NCBI GenBank assembly: GCA_039714075.1
Contig: JBDLKA010000001.1
Location: 121,412 to 185,411 of the forward strand
Origin: Candidatus Krumholzibacteriota bacterium
Lineage (GTDB): Bacteria; Krumholzibacteriota; Krumholzibacteriia; LZORAL124-64-63
DNA length: 64,000 nt
Reading direction: 5' to 3'
Below are positions 21,100 through 26,570 of this stretch, one piece after another. The notes below the pieces were generated by a model, which was not told where the DNA came from, made no database searches, and was given only the letters and a program-made list of their open reading frames with translations. The number at the start of each line of letters is the position of its first letter. Within the stretch, counting starts at the first letter, position 1. Position numbers and translations under genes: made by a program.

Positions 21100-23019
21100 C
21101 TAGGTCTTGTTCCTGACCGCGTCAAGGATATCCTGGGCGACCTGGTCCACTTTCCTGGCCCCCTGATCCCCCTGATGCCGTATTCTGAGCGCAACTTCGC
21201 CGTTTTCGGCCTCCCGGCCGCCCACGACCAGCATCCAGGGCACCCGCAGCACTTCGGCCTCGCGGATCTTGAAACCGATTTTCTCGTCCCGAACATCTTC
21301 TCCGACCCGTATTCCGCTTTCCCGCAGCCTGGCGGCTACGGACCGGGCGTATTCGTGCTGGTCCCGGCTGACGGACAGTACCCGGACCTGTTCGGGAGCC
21401 AGCCACAGCGGGAAGTCACCCGCGAAGTGTTCGGTCAATATCCCGATGAACCGTTCCAGCGAACCCATGATGGCCCGGTGCACCATGTAGACATAACGGT
21501 CCTGGCCGTCGCTGTCGGTGTAGGTCACGTTGAAGCGCCGGGGCAGGTTGAAGTCGAACTGGATGGTGCTGGTCTGCCACCGGCGGCCGATGGCGTCGAT
21601 GAGTTTGACATCGATCTTGGGACCGTAGAAAACAGCCTCACCCTCTTCGCGCGTGTAGTCGAGACCGTGTTTACCCAGGGCCTTGATCAGCGAAGCTTCG
21701 GCGGCGTCCCACTCCTCGTCGGTGCCGGCGTACTTGCCCTTGTTTTCCGGATCCCGGACCGACAGCTCCACCTTGAAGTCGTCGAACCCGAAGGCCCCCA
21801 TGATCTCCTTCACCAGGTCGATGCACAGGCACACTTCGTCCTCGAGCTGTTCGGGCGTGCAGAAGTGGTGGGCGTCGTCCTGGGTGAATCCGCGCACGCG
21901 CATCAGGCCGTGCAGGGTTCCCTTGAGCTCGGCCCGGTAGACGGTGCCCAGTTCCGCGTAACGGACCGGCAGGCTGCGGTAGCCGCGGGTCTTACGCTGG
22001 AACATCAGGATGTGCCCCGGACAGTTCATGGGCTTGACGACGTAGGAACGTTCGTCCTGCTCGAAGACGTACATGTCGTCCTTGTAGAACTCCATGTGGC
22101 CTGAAGTCTCCCACAGGCCCGCCTGGGAAATATGCGGCGTCGTCACGGTCTGGTAACCGTTGCGGCGGTGAATGCCCTTCCAGTAGTCGATGATCTGCTC
22201 ACGCAGGATGTCGCCGCGGGGAAACCAGTAGGACAGCCCGGGTCCGGCATCGTCCATGATCCCGAACAGGTCCAGCTCCCGGCCCAGCTTGCGGTGGTCC
22301 CGCTTCTTGGCCTCTTCCAGCATTTCCAGATGGGCGTCCAGATCCTTCTTCTTGAAAAAACCCGTCCCGTAGATGCGCTGCAGCATGGGCTGGCTGCTGT
22401 CGCCCCGCCAGTAGGCGCCGGCCACGCTGAGCAGCTTGAAGGCCTTCAGGTCCTTGGTGTCGGGAACGTGCGGACCTTCGCACAAGTCCCGGAACTCCCC
22501 CATCCCGTAGACGGAAAGCTGCTCGTCACCCAGGGAGGCGATCTGCTCCAGCTTGTAGGGCTGGTCGCTGAACATCTTTTCGGCTTCCTGCCGGCTGACT
22601 TCCCGGCGCTCGATGGCGACCTTCTGCTTCGCCAGTTCGCGCATGCGCTTTTCGATGCTCTCGAGTTCCGCTTCGGTGAAGGGGTCTTCCCGGTCGAAGT
22701 CGTAGTAGAAACCGTTTTCGATGTCGGGACCGAAGGCGAACTTCACACCCGGAAAAAGATCCTGGACGGCCCACGCCATCAGGTGCGCCGTCGAATGACG
22801 CAACGTCGCCAGGCCTTCATCCGCCCCGCGGGTGATGACCAGCATCTCCCCCCCGGTCGTGACCTTTTCCACCAGGGGATGATGAACACCGTCGACGGTC
22901 ACGGCCAGGGCGCTGCGGTACAGGCCCTCGCCTATCTGCCGCACCGCGTCGCCATACGTCTGACCTTCTTCGATCTGCAGGGAATTCCCGTCCGGCAGTT
23001 TCAGCGACAGTTCCGACAT
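21100..23019 (-). CDS. thrS: Threonine--tRNA ligase
   Basis: TGS domain, RHSTAHLMA, DLCEGPH, RDHRKLG, KPMNCPGH, RVRGFTQDDAH and HRAIMGSLERF. Confidence 0.98.
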   Translation of the reverse strand: MSELSLKLPDGNSLQIEEGQTYGDAVRQIGEGLYRSALAVTVDGVHHPLVEKVTTGGEMLVITRGADEGLATLRHSTAHLMAWAVQDLFPGVKFAFGPDIENGFYYDFDREDPFTEAELESIEKRMRELAKQKVAIERREVSRQEAEKMFSDQPYKLEQIASLGDEQLSVYGMGEFRDLCEGPHVPDTKDLKAFKLLSVAGAYWRGDSSQPMLQRIYGTGFFKKKDLDAHLEMLEEAKKRDHRKLGRELDLFGIMDDAGPGLSYWFPRGDILREQIIDYWKGIHRRNGYQTVTTPHISQAGLWETSGHMEFYKDDMYVFEQDERSYVVKPMNCPGHILMFQRKTRGYRSLPVRYAELGTVYRAELKGTLHGLMRVRGFTQDDAHHFCTPEQLEDEVCLCIDLVKEIMGAFGFDDFKVELSVRDPENKGKYAGTDEEWDAAEASLIKALGKHGLDYTREEGEAVFYGPKIDVKLIDAIGRRWQTSTIQFDFNLPRRFNVTYTDSDGQDRYVYMVHRAIMGSLERFIGILTEHFAGDFPLWLAPEQVRVLSVSRDQHEYARSVAARLRESGIRVGEDVRDEKIGFKIREAEVLRVPWMLVVGGREAENGEVALRIRHQGDQGARKVDQVAQDILDAVRNKT

Positions 23020-23238: not shown

Positions 23239-23267
23239 TTGACCAAATATTCGATTTTTGATAATAT
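23239..23267 (+). promoter_or_regulatory. Promoter of secreted-protein copy 1
   Basis: TTGACC-17nt-TAATAT with extended TGn, 45 nt before the ATG. Confidence 0.65.
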
Positions 23268-23312
23268 TCTCGTATTCGCCCATTACTCAAGGTTACAACT
23301 TAGGGGTTAACA

Positions 23313-23924
23313 ATGAAAAAGATGGTAATCCTCGCCCTGGTCAGCTTGGTCGCAACTTCCGCATTCGCCGTTCTGGATCCCGATGACAACATGATGGGGG
23401 TCTACTTCGACACAATCGCTGAAAGCAATTGCCTGACCACCCCGGCCAGCGTCCCTTTCAACGCCTACATCATCCTCACCAACACCACCGCGCCTTCCAT
23501 CAATGCCTACGAGTTGGGCCTTGATGTGGTGGTTCCGGCCGGTATGGAAGGCATGATCTTCCGTCTGGCTTCCAACATCGCCGACTTGGTTGTCGCTGGT
23601 GTCGATGTAGGAACCAATGGCCCCTTGGGCGGCGATTTCATCGTCGGCCTGGCCGCTCCGCTTCCGGCACAGGAAGCTGTTATTCTGCACTCGTTCCAGT
23701 ACATGCTGCTGGCCGTGATGCCTGTGGAAATCTTCATCGGCGCTTCCTCGGCTCCTTCCATCCCGGGTGATTTCCCCGTGGTGCAGAATGCCGTAGGTTC
23801 CATTCTGATGCAGGTCGGACAGTCGACCGGCGGACCGGATGTGGCTGTCGCCACCATCAACACCGGTTGTGTTGTTGGTGTCGAAGAAGCAAGCTTCGGC
23901 AGCGTCAAGAGCCTGTTCCGGTAA
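23313..23924 (+). CDS. Secreted hypothetical protein, copy 1 (C-terminal VEEASFGSVKSLFR)
   Basis: Signal peptide MKKMVILALVSLVATSAFA; paralogue of the next two genes. Confidence 0.9.
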   Translation: MKKMVILALVSLVATSAFAVLDPDDNMMGVYFDTIAESNCLTTPASVPFNAYIILTNTTAPSINAYELGLDVVVPAGMEGMIFRLASNIADLVVAGVDVGTNGPLGGDFIVGLAAPLPAQEAVILHSFQYMLLAVMPVEIFIGASSAPSIPGDFPVVQNAVGSILMQVGQSTGGPDVAVATINTGCVVGVEEASFGSVKSLFR

Positions 23925-23963
23925 ACGGGTATGACTTGACGTCCACTAGGGGCGAATAAAGAC

Positions 23964-23997
23964 GGGGCCTGCTGTTTCAGCAGGCCCCTCTTTTTTT
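23964..23997 (+). terminator. Intrinsic terminator, copy 1
   Basis: GGGGCCTGCTG-TTT-CAGCAGGCCCC followed by TCTTTTTTT. Confidence 0.9.
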
Positions 23998-24028
23998 CAC
24001 CCCAATGGCGTTTCAACACCTGTGGCCG

Positions 24029-24056
24029 TAGACAAGACCCCGTTTTCTGATATACT
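24029..24056 (+). promoter_or_regulatory. Promoter of copy 2
   Basis: TAGACA-16nt-TATACT with extended TGn; conserved before copy 3. Confidence 0.65.
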
Positions 24057-24100
24057 CCAATCAATTGCATGTGCTAAATATTTTATGGAAGGTGAAACTA

Positions 24101-24712
24101 ATGAAACAGTTGATATTTGTTATATTGATCAGCTTGGTTTCGACGGTTGCGTTTGGCGTGGCGGATCCCGATGACGACATCATGGGTATCTACTTCGACC
24201 TGAACGCTGACGATAATTGCCTGACGGCTCAACCGGCCAGCGTTCCTTTCTTCGCCTACATCATTCTCACCAACACCACCGCCCCGGCCATCAATGCCTA
24301 CGAACTGGGCTTGACGGCTGCGGTTCCGGCCGGTTTGGAAGGCATGCTCTTCCGCCTGGCTTCCACCATCGCCAACGGTGTGGTCAGTGGTGTGGATGTC
24401 GGTACCAATGGTCCTCTGGGCGGCGATTTCATCGTTGGCCTGGCTGCTTCTCTTCCGGGACAGCCTGCGGTAGTTCTGCACTCTTTCCAGTACATGCTGC
24501 TGACACCAATGATTGTGGAATTCTACCTCGGTGCTTCCTCGGCTCCTTCCATCCCGGGTGATTTACCCGTGGTGCAGAATGCCGAAGGTTCCATTTTGAT
24601 GCAGGTCGGACTGTCGACCGGCGGACCGGATACTCCGGTTGCCATTGTCAACTGCAACACTTCTCCCGTCGAAGAAGCCAGCTTTGGCAGCGTCAAAAGC
24701 CTATACCGATGA
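24101..24712 (+). CDS. Secreted hypothetical protein, copy 2 (C-terminal VEEASFGSVKSLYR)
   Basis: Signal peptide MKQLIFVILISLVSTVAFG; RBS GAAGGTG; paralogue. Confidence 0.9.
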   Translation: MKQLIFVILISLVSTVAFGVADPDDDIMGIYFDLNADDNCLTAQPASVPFFAYIILTNTTAPAINAYELGLTAAVPAGLEGMLFRLASTIANGVVSGVDVGTNGPLGGDFIVGLAASLPGQPAVVLHSFQYMLLTPMIVEFYLGASSAPSIPGDLPVVQNAEGSILMQVGLSTGGPDTPVAIVNCNTSPVEEASFGSVKSLYR

Positions 24713-24749
24713 AATTGCCCTCGCCCATGGCTATTTTTGCACAAAAGGA

Positions 24750-24784
24750 AGGGGCCTGCTGATTTCAGCAGGCCCCTCGTTTTT
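24750..24784 (+). terminator. Intrinsic terminator, copy 2
   Basis: AGGGGCCTGCTGA-TT-TCAGCAGGCCCCT followed by CGTTTTT. Confidence 0.85.
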
Positions 24785-24816
24785 CCGCTCCAACGGCATT
24801 TCAACACCTGTGGCCG

Positions 24817-24844
24817 TAGACAGAACCCCATTTTCTGATATACT
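24817..24844 (+). promoter_or_regulatory. Promoter of copy 3
   Basis: TAGACA-16nt-TATACT with extended TGn. Confidence 0.65.
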
Positions 24845-24888
24845 CCCATCAATAGTATTCACTGAATATTTTCAGAAAGGGGAAACCA

Positions 24889-25497
24889 ATGAAACCGTTG
24901 ATATTTCTTATGTTGGTCAGCCTGGTTGCGACAGCTACGTTTGGTGGAATAGATCCCGATGACGACATCATGGGGGTCTACTTCGACTTGAACGCTGACA
25001 ACCATTGCCTGACCATACCGCCCAGTGTTCCTTTCATGGCCTACATAATTCTCACCAACCCCACAGCTCCCGCCATCAATGCATATGAGTTGGGCCTGAC
25101 GGTTGCGGTTCCGACCGGTATGGAAGCCTCGATCTTCCGTCTGGCGTCCACCATCGCCAACGGCGTGGTCAGTGGTGTGGATGTCGGCACCAATGGTCCT
25201 CTGGGGGGCGATTTCATCGTCGGACTGGCGGCACCGCTTCCGAGCCAGCTCGCTGTTGTCCTGCACTCCTTCCAGTACATGTTGCTGGCCAACTTTATCG
25301 TGGAATTCTACATCGGTGCATCCTCGGCTCCTTCGATCCCGGGTGATTTTCCCGTGGTCCAGAACGCCGATGGTTCCATCCTGATGCAGGTCGGAGTGCT
25401 CTCTGGCGGACCTGAATATCCCCTTGCCTGGATCAACGATTGCGCATTCCCAGTCGAGGAAGCCAGCTTTGGCAGCGTCAAGAGCCTATACCGGTAA
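24889..25497 (+). CDS. Secreted hypothetical protein, copy 3 (C-terminal VEEASFGSVKSLYR)
   Basis: Signal peptide MKPLIFLMLVSLVATATFG; paralogue. Confidence 0.9.
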   Translation: MKPLIFLMLVSLVATATFGGIDPDDDIMGVYFDLNADNHCLTIPPSVPFMAYIILTNPTAPAINAYELGLTVAVPTGMEASIFRLASTIANGVVSGVDVGTNGPLGGDFIVGLAAPLPSQLAVVLHSFQYMLLANFIVEFYIGASSAPSIPGDFPVVQNADGSILMQVGVLSGGPEYPLAWINDCAFPVEEASFGSVKSLYR

Positions 25498-25534
25498 AAT
25501 TGCCCTCGCCCAAGGCTATTTTTGCCCAAAAAGA

Positions 25535-25570
25535 AGGGGCCTGCTGTTTTCAGCAGGCCCCTCTTATTAT
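25535..25570. terminator. Terminator, copy 3 (probably bidirectional with convergent tRNA-Val)
   Basis: AGGGGCCTGCTG-TTTT-CAGCAGGCCCCT, flanked by AAAAAGA on the left and CTTATTAT on the right. Confidence 0.8.
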
Positions 25571-25574
25571 GCGG

Positions 25575-25653
25575 TGGTGGGCGATACGGGATTCGAACCT
25601 GTGACCTCTTGTCTGTCAAACAAGCGCTCTAACCAAAGCTGAGCTAATCGCCC
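25575..25653 (-). tRNA. tRNA-Val(GAC)
   Basis: GGGCGATTAGCTCAGC...CTTGT-TTGACAG-ACAAG...GGTTCGAATCC...ACCA. Confidence 0.96.
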
Positions 25654-25715: not shown

Positions 25716-26570
25716 TCAGGTAAGGTAGTCGACCAGCCGTTCCCCGTGCCCGTGCTGCCGCATCTTGCTGAGAGCCTGGTTCCTGATCTGCCGGACACGT
25801 TCCCGCGAAAGATTGATGTCCTGGCCGATGGTCTCCAGGGAAGCCGTTTCCTGGCTGCCCAGCCCGTAGTAGCGAATCACGATGTTCTTCTCGCGCGGAG
25901 ACAGCAGATCCATGGCGTCGGCCAGTTCCTGCAGCAGTTCGCCCGAAACGTAATCCTGGTCGGGCGTCAGATCCTCGGGATCGGCCAGGGTATCGGCCAG
26001 GGTCACGTCATCGTCGTAAAGCGGCTGGTCGAGACTGATCAAAGGCCGGCTGGCGGCCCGGATCTGCCCCATCTTGCGCAGGTCCAGGCTCATGGCCTCG
26101 GCGATCTCGTCCTCGCCCACCTTGCGCTTGTGCTTCTGCTCCAGGTTCTGTGACACCCGCTTCATGCGCTGGGCCTGCTGGGAGCGATTGATGGGCAGCC
26201 GCACGGTATTGGTCTGCTCGGCGATGGCTTTCTGGATGGCCTGACGAATCCACCAGACGGCATAGGAGATGAAGCGGAACTCCCGCCTTTCATCGAACCG
26301 CTTGGCGGCGGTGATCAGACCGATATTGCCTTCGGCGATCAGGTCCATGTAGCTGAGACCCTGATTGAGGAATTTTTTGGCCACGCTGACCACGAAGCGG
26401 AGATTCGAATTGACCAGCTTGTCGAGCGCTGCCTTGTCGCCCCCCCGGATGCGGGTGGCCAGCTCGAATTCCTCTTCCCTCGTCAACAGATTATGCTTGC
26501 CTATGGTCTGCAGATAATGCTGGAGGCTCGAGTCTTCGCGACGGTCGCTGCTGAGTTCGATTTCGTACAC
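25716..26570 (-). CDS. Sigma-70 family RNA polymerase sigma factor (short RpoD/SigA-like; regions 1.2, 2, 3, 4)
   Basis: LLTREEE, NLRFVVSVAK, DLIAEGNIGL, FISYAVWWIRQ and LSRERVRQI; no region 1.1; GTG start after AGGAGG. Confidence 0.92.
   Translation of the reverse strand: MYEIELSSDRREDSSLQHYLQTIGKHNLLTREEEFELATRIRGGDKAALDKLVNSNLRFVVSVAKKFLNQGLSYMDLIAEGNIGLITAAKRFDERREFRFISYAVWWIRQAIQKAIAEQTNTVRLPINRSQQAQRMKRVSQNLEQKHKRKVGEDEIAEAMSLDLRKMGQIRAASRPLISLDQPLYDDDVTLADTLADPEDLTPDQDYVSGELLQELADAMDLLSPREKNIVIRYYGLGSQETASLETIGQDINLSRERVRQIRNQALSKMRQHGHGERLVDYLT

Follow-up and report, generated by a model that had tools for sequence, protein, structure and literature searches.

A short C-terminal tail on unrelated secreted proteins of a Krumholzibacteriota bacterium and a candidate barrel-lipoprotein system that may read it

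The window analyzed here, a stretch of 64,000 nucleotides from a Candidatus Krumholzibacteriota bacterium, contains three paralogous genes in tandem on the plus strand: paralogue 1 (23313..23924, 203 aa), paralogue 2 (24101..24712, 203 aa counted from the ATG at 24101), and paralogue 3 (24889..25497, 202 aa). Paralogues 2 and 3 each share 74% identity with paralogue 1, and all three begin with a signal-peptide pattern, which in paralogue 1 spans approximately residues 1 to 19 as judged by eye and is followed by a predicted cohesin-like beta-sandwich and a C-terminal tail. The proteins diverge just ahead of the end and then close with 14 residues that are identical save for an F/Y exchange, confirming the three secreted paralogues with a common tail that a previous sequence-only reading had described. 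The last 16 residues of paralogue 1 (23874..23921, plus strand) consist of a short linker and a predicted helix, and profile matches place the equivalent tails at 24662..24709 in paralogue 2 and 25447..25494 in paralogue 3, both on the plus strand. Upstream of paralogue 1 is a consensus match to a sigma-70-like promoter (23239..23268), and promoter-like matches with identical hexamers and spacing precede paralogue 2 (24029..24056) and paralogue 3 (24817..24844), all on the plus strand. Each gene is followed by a terminator-like hairpin (23964..23988, 24750..24777, and 25534..25563), the last of which is positioned so that it could also end the convergent tRNA-Val(GAC) gene on the minus strand at 25575..25653. 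This tRNA gene on the right and, on the left, a minus-strand ORF at 21100..23019, which from recognition of its sequence we take to be threonyl-tRNA synthetase-like, provide context only.

AlphaFold, supplied with an alignment of 120 rows, modeled paralogue 1 (pLDDT 88) as a beta-sandwich with a separate tail helix at residues 195 to 202, where pLDDT was 45 to 51; a single-sequence model made without an alignment (pLDDT 30) was discarded. The predicted body matched a cohesin in the PDB with a Z of 12.7 and an rmsd of 3.1 Å over 128 aligned residues, and the best 19 structural matches were cohesin or cohesin-like modules. A Pfam search with the three window proteins returned no match to a cohesin family or to any other. 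Judged from the predicted model, the bodies of the window paralogues fold like cohesin, and the genes are probably recent duplicates, separately transcribed, that encode tail-bearing cargo with this fold. The proteins might be S-layer, sheath, or fiber subunits, a role that the sequence-only reading had proposed. The sequence-only reading had also pointed out that the tail holds the only Lys of each mature protein; this is correct past residue 25 in all three paralogues but largely reflects composition, as Lys accounts for 0.95% of the bodies of tail proteins and 1.18% of the bodies of T9SS cargo, compared with 3.14% genome-wide.

The tail follows the pattern V-[APG]-V-E-x-x-[ST]-[WF]-G-x-[VLI]-K-x-L-[YF]-R-stop. 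A 16-column profile found it at the end of 74 proteins of this genome, each match scoring at least 25 bits, with 72 flush with the stop codon and two within 3 residues of it. No internal copy scoring at least 14 bits was present among 5,872,357 six-frame windows of this genome, and the recurrence of the tail is not due to chance. The 74 bodies fall into 38 unrelated clusters, the cohesin-like family being the largest cargo family, so that the tail does occur on otherwise unrelated signal-peptide proteins, as had been predicted. A crude score detected a signal peptide in 68 of the 74, and a stricter test did so in 59, compared with 280 of 1500 long ORFs. Among 40 bodies scanned, there were matches above the cut-off to beta-helix, CBM20, LTD (twice), C39 peptidase, AhpC-TSA, and choice-of-anchor X models, and below the cut-off to the PEP-CTERM protein PepA and to ExeM. 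The tail is a detachable module of 15 to 16 residues at the C-terminus of Sec-type proteins with many different folds. It matched no entry in Pfam, NCBIfam, or the PDB, a protein atlas search returned only clusters without names, and in this genome it was neither confined to a single domain, nor internal, nor a core strand, nor a match to a known model. These observations support its description as a portable C-terminal tag, distinct both from a core strand and from described signal models.

Several positions of the tail are nearly invariant among the 74 proteins (G in 71, K in 73 with R once, W/F in 71, Y/F in 71, and the terminal R in 66). The 10-residue core holds S, G, K, and R and includes no hydrophobic transmembrane segment, and the end has one terminal Arg rather than a basic cluster of 2 to 5 residues, in agreement with the earlier statement that the tail is not a transmembrane helix and not an LPXTG, PEP-CTERM, or GlyGly-CTERM signal. 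The proposal that the tail forms an amphipathic helix gains little from its mean hydrophobic moment of 0.45, which compares with 0.34 ± 0.16 for shuffled sequences and is the same at beta-strand periodicity. Membrane-targeting helices are present in MinD and in low-molecular-weight PBPs, and the tail might similarly be a receptor-free amphipathic helix that keeps exported proteins at the surface of a membrane or of the cell wall, possibly within the periplasm. The detached helix that is predicted, a net charge of +2 in 56 of the 74 tails, and the avidity that duplicated copies would gain fit this idea. We nevertheless consider it quite improbable, given the unremarkable moment, the sequence-specific conservation of G, K, and the terminal R, and the fixed distance from the stop in 72 tails, and it leaves unexplained the exchange of the tail with the T9SS CTD, the linker shared with that domain, and the gene profile, all described below. 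It is likewise unlikely that the tail docks on some other factor, for example by serving as a covalent acceptor through its invariant Lys or by binding a cohesin-like receptor, for which it would act as a "mini-dockerin." The near absence of K-to-R replacement and the cohesin fold of the largest cargo family speak for such docking, but a search of 50 genomes, nearly all of them tail-positive, detected the cohesin-like family in 5, and this family is therefore ruled out as a general, universal receptor of the tail. In addition, neighbor clustering around 71 tagged genes revealed no recurrent machinery or enzyme, only a modest enrichment of CTD genes (19/71 versus 413/3,067).

Beyond this genome, the tail is present in all 121 genomes examined of the window's phylum and in 73 of 201 Bacteroidota genomes, where it is found on one conserved small protein. 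A library of 1.84 billion proteins yielded 1,586 matching clusters, and among the best 150 of these, the last copy of the tail lies at most 2 residues from the end in 148. The expectation that the motif is strictly C-terminal was borne out in all 74 proteins of this genome but not entirely in the database, as 7 of the best 150 matches carry a second copy, whether tandem, internal, or N-terminal, and a single lipoprotein family accounts for 6 of these 7. Records labeled Krumholzibacteria and Eisenbacteria were matched, which substantiates the earlier statement that these lineages carry similar tails. The single-copy form is found across Bacteroidota classes and in records labeled Melioribacter and Ignavibacteriae. 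The neighbors of its gene, presumably maf-, pyrR-, and tmk-like as recognized by eye, differ by lineage, and a sequence search of the PDB with the single-copy protein found nothing convincing. Tail matches in two further genomes, G137 and G146, were taken as chance pattern matches.

The genome containing the window also encodes a T9SS, with SprA (468 bits; cut-off 200), PorU (467; cut-off 420) adjoining a PorV, six PorV-family genes above cut-off, and 158 proteins with a C-terminal CTD. GldN was not matched in this genome (92% complete) by a model that detects it in 49 of the 201 Bacteroidota. These components raise the alternative of a minimal T9SS signal, in which the tail would be delivered to SprA by a PorV-family shuttle, with PorU cutting the linker and anchoring the cargo and with the lipoproteins and barrel described below being bystanders or T9SS accessories. 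The distribution of the tail is consistent with this: matches to SprA and PorU were found in all 73 tail-positive Bacteroidota (71 with strong PorU matches), SprA was found in all 19 multi-copy tail genomes, and the tail was absent from all 39 SprA-negative Bacteroidota. In related proteins, as a portable tag would, the tail occupies the place of the CTD: one body ends in the tail at C110 and, at 65% identity, in a CTD at C106, and an untagged lipoprotein that shares 66% identity with a tagged one ends at the point where the tail would start. A minimal T9SS signal would also suit the longer homologues of the single-copy tail protein, as 17 of the 21 have its body as the domain directly ahead of the CTD, and the linker [AGPS]V[EDGP] is found in 64 of 132 CTD cargo and 35 of 74 tails, compared with 4 of 132 control windows. 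The PorU cleavage sites listed in Table 2 of PMC4560394 have the form X/(GSA)(VLI), and the dipeptide (GSA)(VLI) occupies a fixed position in 25 of this genome's 74 tails, against a background of 4.9%, as it does in 18 of 24 single-copy tails. Among 93 multi-copy tails from an independent set, however, the position behind the presumed cut is taken by Pro in 43 and by (GSA)(VLI) in 10.

Other data are harder to reconcile with a minimal T9SS signal. SprA is present in 162 of the 201 Bacteroidota, and 89 of these 162 do not have the tail. Known CTDs are described in PMC11285876 as beta-sandwiches of 67 to 108 residues whose architecture is essential, whereas the tail is approximately 10 residues and predicted to be helical. 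Neither TIGR04183, PF18962, nor PF13860 matched the three proteins of the window, 40 further cargo proteins, or 60 tails, the CTD profile of this genome matched no tagged protein, and no protein of this genome has both a tail and a CTD. Median cargo size is 208 aa for the tail and 739 aa for the CTD. A quick tree of 68 rows, which took in 30 of the 67 PorV matches from tail-positive genomes, contained no tail-specific PorV clade, and tandem and N-terminal copies are more readily expected of a binding module than of a cleavage signal at the terminus. A minimal T9SS signal is, on this evidence, a somewhat unlikely explanation, though the strongest of the rivals.

The dedicated machine that the sequence-only reading had postulated now has a concrete candidate in a lipoprotein pair, A and B, which came from phylogenetic profiling, and a predicted barrel, which came from gene order, although we infer its role. 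Among the 201 Bacteroidota, the tail and the lipoprotein family occur together in 72 genomes, the tail alone in 1, the lipoproteins alone in 3, and neither in 125, so that the family is present in 75 genomes overall and in 3 of the 128 that are tail-negative. The one tail-only genome carries lipoprotein A, and G309, the sole tail-positive genome among the 49 with GldN, has the lipoprotein family. Because 89 of the SprA-positive genomes lack the tail, the lipoproteins fit the tail far better than SprA does; this profile represents few clades, perhaps 3 to 5 independent events, and any gene that those clades kept would fit it. In the window's phylum, all 24 genomes searched carry lipoprotein A (2 of them belonged to the query alignment), and no match to it was obtained in four tail-positive genomes, G124, G126, G128, and G142; in G128, the barrel match reaches a contig edge. 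SprA and lipoprotein A were not found in G135 (six tail matches) or G140 (three matches, two of them real tails), and seven of these tail matches are on contigs whose fetched ends show 2 to 13 kb, in 8-Mb bins. We read these apparent counter-examples as probably mis-binned DNA.

Lipoprotein A ends in a helix with the pattern of the tail, and lipoprotein B has no such end. Scored with a 9-column core profile made from this genome's tails alone, the ends of Bacteroidota lipoprotein A had a median of 11.6 bits and outscored the best block inside the same protein in all 23 cases, compared with 1 of 34 for lipoprotein B; in this genome, 72 of 3,112 called genes reach at least 10 bits with this profile. 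With a gapped tail HMM, the same lipoprotein A ends did not rise above controls (best 3.4 bits). The end helix of this genome's own lipoprotein A is degenerate (-8.9 bits), the median over 30 loci being -1.6. In 27 of these 30 loci, a gene for a protein of approximately 650 aa is directly upstream of lipoprotein A; this arrangement holds in all 27 loci of many-tail lineages, and the three exceptions are single-tail genomes. In Bacteroidota, this gene does not adjoin the lipoprotein genes. Within the tail-positive genomes searched, the gene was single-copy in five of five tested, three of them single-tail. With 20 amphipathic 9-mers, no membrane helix, and a terminal Phe, its product is, from composition, a predicted outer-membrane beta-barrel. 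The barrel had no match in Pfam or NCBIfam, and neither it nor lipoprotein B had a convincing match among PDB sequences. The lipoproteins had no family match to the Pfam or NCBIfam models searched, with sub-threshold DUF4440 and SnoaL_2 matches (E 4e-4 to 0.04) in 3 of 14 proteins as a possible pointer to an NTF2-like/SnoaL fold. Lipoprotein B is one gene away from porU-porV in G338, as would suit a T9SS accessory. The tail, lipoproteins, and barrel are undescribed in the literature searched, which was mostly outside subscription papers; preprint supplements could list further signal models.

We give about even chances to the tail being a portable docking helix read by a barrel-lipoprotein system beside an apparently GldN-less T9SS. 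Following Sec export, the helix [ST]-W/F-G-x-hydrophobic-K-x-hydrophobic-[YF]-R would dock at a specific site of an envelope system comprising lipoprotein A, lipoprotein B, and the single-copy barrel. This system would export or display small cargo at the surface, a location suggested by the types of bodies, and would work beside, or as an accessory of, the GldN-less T9SS (SprA, PorV, and PorU), to which large CTD cargo would be left. The ancestral state may have been a single tagged protein per genome, composed of a signal peptide, an FN3-like domain, and the tail, with the tag subsequently expanding to dozens of proteins in Krumholzibacteria- and Eisenbacteria-type lineages. More speculatively, the linker ahead of the helix could be a PorU-type cut site, and some cargo may be trimmed and covalently anchored. 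Our fuller proposal is more tentative, falling somewhat short of an even chance: that the FCB group has an undescribed outer-membrane export or display system in which the barrel and two lipoproteins recognize a C-terminal helix of 10 residues that arose from the end of lipoprotein A itself. Working in parallel to an apparently GldN-less T9SS, it would have a single conserved substrate in lineages of the Ignavibacteria type, whereas Krumholzibacteria and Eisenbacteria would have tens of them.

As a sorting signal that has no membrane helix and no folded domain, the tail would fit neither of the known classes of signal at the C-terminus and, if tied to the barrel and lipoprotein pair, would imply a new way for proteins to reach the surface of Gram-negative cells. 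If instead the tail were a T9SS signal, this would overturn the view that T9SS cargo requires a folded CTD. The tail also provides a handle on ~2% of the called genes in this genome (71/3,295), nearly all of which are now annotated as hypothetical, and a pointer to envelope organization in T9SS-bearing lineages without GldN. The Bacteroidota classes with the single-copy form include cultured species, which opens the question to bench work, and a 16-residue display tag would be a useful tool.

Like the T9SS type A CTD (TIGR04183, PF18962, and PF13860), it is C-terminal, occurs on many Sec-exported proteins per genome, is interchangeable on one body behind a similar linker, and in the samples tested is found only with SprA and PorU; it differs in being a predicted helix of approximately 10 to 16 residues rather than a beta-sandwich, in its small cargo, in its absence from many SprA-positive genomes, and in tracking a lipoprotein pair and a barrel that do not belong to the known components of a T9SS. 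Judged by the attribute list for tripartite C-terminal sorting signals in bioRxiv 10.1101/2023.06.07.544157, the tail has a stop-flush position (72/74), at least three nearly invariant residues, and signal peptides on unrelated bodies. It resembles LPXTG/sortase, PEP-CTERM/exosortase, GlyGly-CTERM/rhombosortase, and MYXO-CTERM/myxosortase signals in being short, C-terminal, and multi-copy and in sharing body types (PepA-like and ExeM-like), but lacks their transmembrane segment and basic cluster, and it has no candidate intramembrane protease, the genes co-occurring with it being those of the outer membrane. The window bodies share a predicted fold with cohesin modules (PDB 2vo8, 2w1n, 3l8q, and 2xdh), from which they differ in their 6 to 14% identity, in having no Pfam match, and in being stand-alone single modules. 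Slam (type XI) and curli CsgG (type VIII) are small dedicated outer-membrane export systems made up of a barrel and a lipoprotein. Although the barrel and lipoproteins proposed here have no family match among the models searched, the likeness to these systems, by analogy only, is one of a single barrel with accessory lipoproteins serving small, Sec-exported cargo.

Each of the three window genes (23313-23924, 24101-24712 and 24889-25497, all on the + strand) encodes a protein with a signal-peptide pattern and a common 14-residue end, as the sequence-only reading had it, and none of the proteins matched Pfam or NCBIfam above the cut-off. A near-identical terminator-like hairpin lies 3' of each paralogue and promoter-like hexamers are the same for paralogues 2 and 3 (both consensus matches), so that the array, judged from its sequence and set between a thrS-like gene and a tRNA-Val gene, looks as though an entire transcription unit had been duplicated in tandem. 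Just past the latter is an ORF recognized by eye as a sigma-70-family sigma factor (25716-26570). The window itself covers C1:121412-185411 of the host genome. AlphaFold, supplied with 120 homologues, predicted a beta-sandwich at approximately residues 23-185 (pLDDT 88) and, at low confidence, a separate tail helix at 195-202. The modelled body fold is cohesin-like: a structure search with it gave a best Z of 12.7 (rmsd 3.1, 128 aligned), cohesin or cohesin-like modules filled the top 19 rows, and Foldseek was in agreement. This family is lineage-restricted cargo, with 24 members in the host genome (4.06 Mb, 92% complete), weak matches inside three proteins with a type IX secretion system (T9SS) C-terminal domain (CTD; E 5e-4 to 7e-3), and a presence in 5 of the 50 other genomes searched; the tail is retained in 118 of the 120 homologues.

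Our results establish that the tail is a detachable terminal tag. A loose-pattern search placed 63 of 105 matches one residue ahead of the stop, and an iterated profile found 74 matches of at least 25 bits in the host genome, 72 flush with the stop, and no internal copies of at least 14 bits. The 74 tagged proteins form 38 clusters, and their bodies, 40 of which were scanned, include matches to beta-helix, CBM20, LTD, C39 peptidase, AhpC-TSA and choice-of-anchor X, with sub-threshold similarity to PepA and ExeM. A crude signal-peptide score was passed by 68 (of the other six, one is truncated where its contig stops and five look by eye to be mis-started or frameshifted) and a stricter test by 59, compared to 280 of 1500 controls; the tagged proteins would be exported via Sec. 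It is also clear that the tag can be exchanged for a CTD: two bodies 65% identical end one in the tail and the other in a CTD. In a further pair, of lipoproteins 66% identical, one is tagged and the other breaks off at the point at which the tail would begin. The ORF at C7:11212-11676 in this genome ends in the tail and overlaps the adjacent tagged gene in a different frame; it is probably a remnant left by a frameshift. Lysine and arginine are strongly depleted in both secreted cargo classes of this proteome (K 0.95-1.18% versus 3.14%).

Sixty tails gave no convincing match to NCBIfam or Pfam models, and the tail profile had no match in the PDB. Among 1.84 billion representatives there were 1,586 tail matches, and in 148 of the best 150 the last copy lay at most two residues from the end; seven of these 150 carry two copies, probably an over-representation since two copies raise the score. 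The tail is very probably a sorting or docking signal of some kind, and its invariant G and K, together with its terminal position, point to specific recognition. Docking on another receptor, or chemistry at that lysine, we regard as improbable; that the predicted helix is simply a receptor-free membrane helix seems about as improbable.

The tail was found in 121/121 genomes of the window's phylum, with 6 to at least 67 matches each, and a pattern scan of species genomes gave at least 126 loci. The 80 titled loci among the matches listed are mostly labeled Eisenbacteria or Krumholzibacteria or are unnamed, with Ignavibacteria, Kapabacteria, KSB1 and Zixibacteria also present, although deposited labels are unreliable taxonomy. 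Of 35 genomes from the matches listed, 19 have 25-87 tail matches, 13 have one or two, and the others have six, three and none. The single-copy tagged protein is conserved, with a signal peptide, an FN3-like domain and the tail in ~135 aa. Among 21 longer homologues its body directly precedes a CTD in 17, and 16 of those 17 carry PF18962. In a Bacteroidia-labeled genome that also lacks lipoprotein A, a membrane-protein-like ORF without the FN3-like body (L105:700-1233) has a tail-like end that is probably a coincidence.

A single lipoprotein family accounts for six of the seven two-copy proteins, and among its members in the host genome are lipoproteins A and B, a pair encoded within an operon. 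On contig C27 of the host genome, a ksgA-like gene is followed by a 702-codon ORF of barrel-like composition without a family match, lipoproteins A and B, and a divergent polysaccharide deacetylase, with secD/secF-like genes two steps beyond. The barrel gene lies directly upstream of lipoprotein A in 27 of 30 loci, the three exceptions being single-tail genomes, and is single-copy in 5/5 tail-positive genomes tested (three single-tail). A lipoprotein-domain profile (15 rows, five bearing a tail copy), whose matches cover the domain at loci distinct from the single-copy tagged gene, was positive in 75 of 201 Bacteroidota genomes: 72 had both profile match and tail, 3 the lipoprotein alone, 1 the tail alone and 125 neither. 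The lone genome with a tail and no profile match has lipoprotein A. Lipoprotein A occurs in 24/24 genomes of the window's phylum; it was not found in four tail-positive genomes, in tail-negative G169, G171 and G183, or in G135, G137, G140 and G146, whose tail matches are chance or doubtful. In tail register, it ends in [ST]-W-S-[DE]-L-K-x-x-F in Bacteroidota and [TS]-W-G-x-L-R-G-x-[FLY] in many multi-copy genomes. An ungapped core profile confirms this tail-like end in 23/23 Bacteroidota and 22/30 other loci, a gapped HMM gave no support, and the end in the host genome is degenerate. The tail demonstrably co-occurs with lipoproteins A and B. It may have arisen as a copy of the lipoprotein A end, a candidate direction. 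In the favored reading, which we consider about as likely as not, the barrel and lipoproteins would be its reader.

Several loci show other arrangements of this family. P0268 has one tail copy directly after the signal peptide and another at its end, flanking the domain; one genome has five or more tagged genes in tandem (L114-L117); C62:3-1292 of the host genome fuses a multihaem cytochrome c region to the domain; and L323 (G022) has a TAG stop within the lipoprotein A match, with a tail-like helix just ahead.

A direct T9SS signal, the main rival, is a rather unlikely reading. The host genome encodes SprA, PorU adjoining PorV, six PorV-family genes above the cut-off and 158 proteins with a C-terminal CTD, and GldN was not found in this 92% complete assembly. 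Among the 201 Bacteroidota, the tail occurs in 73, SprA in 162 and GldN in 49; SprA and a PorU match accompany the tail in 73/73 (PorU strong in 71). The tail is found in 0/39 SprA-negative genomes, which look like a single clade of small genomes and so count as about one event. The T9SS is thus a poor predictor of the tail, although always present in these samples. Only G309 combines tail and GldN, and it has both lipoproteins. The tail front resembles the pre-CTD linker (64/132 CTD cargo versus 4/132 controls) and also the PorU site, given as X/(GSA)(VLI) in PMC4560394, in 25/74 host tails and 18/24 single-copy tails. Just 10/93 independent multi-copy tails fit that site and 43/93 have Pro there, so PorU-type cleavage cannot be general, and trimming of the tail by PorU would be speculative. 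At C41:6013-10436 and C38:8730-14349 of the host genome, PorV-family barrel genes follow a CTD gene and precede genes recognized by eye as TPR-like and ExbB/ExbD-like, possibly a power source of a GldN-less T9SS. Across L208-L264, four tail-positive GldN-negative genomes have 11-19 PorV-family matches, compared to 3-5 in three GldN-positive ones; many of the matches immediately follow a gene whose product has a CTD-like strand at its end, an arrangement reminiscent of cognate pairs. The barrel-lipoprotein and T9SS readings could become one if GldN-less T9SSs use the barrel and lipoproteins as accessories.

A literature search, with most subscription papers outside its scope, found no description of the tail. 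It differs from tripartite signals, whose criteria in bioRxiv 10.1101/2023.06.07.544157 include a membrane segment and a basic cluster, as it has neither, and from T9SS CTDs in lacking the folded domain described in PMC11285876.
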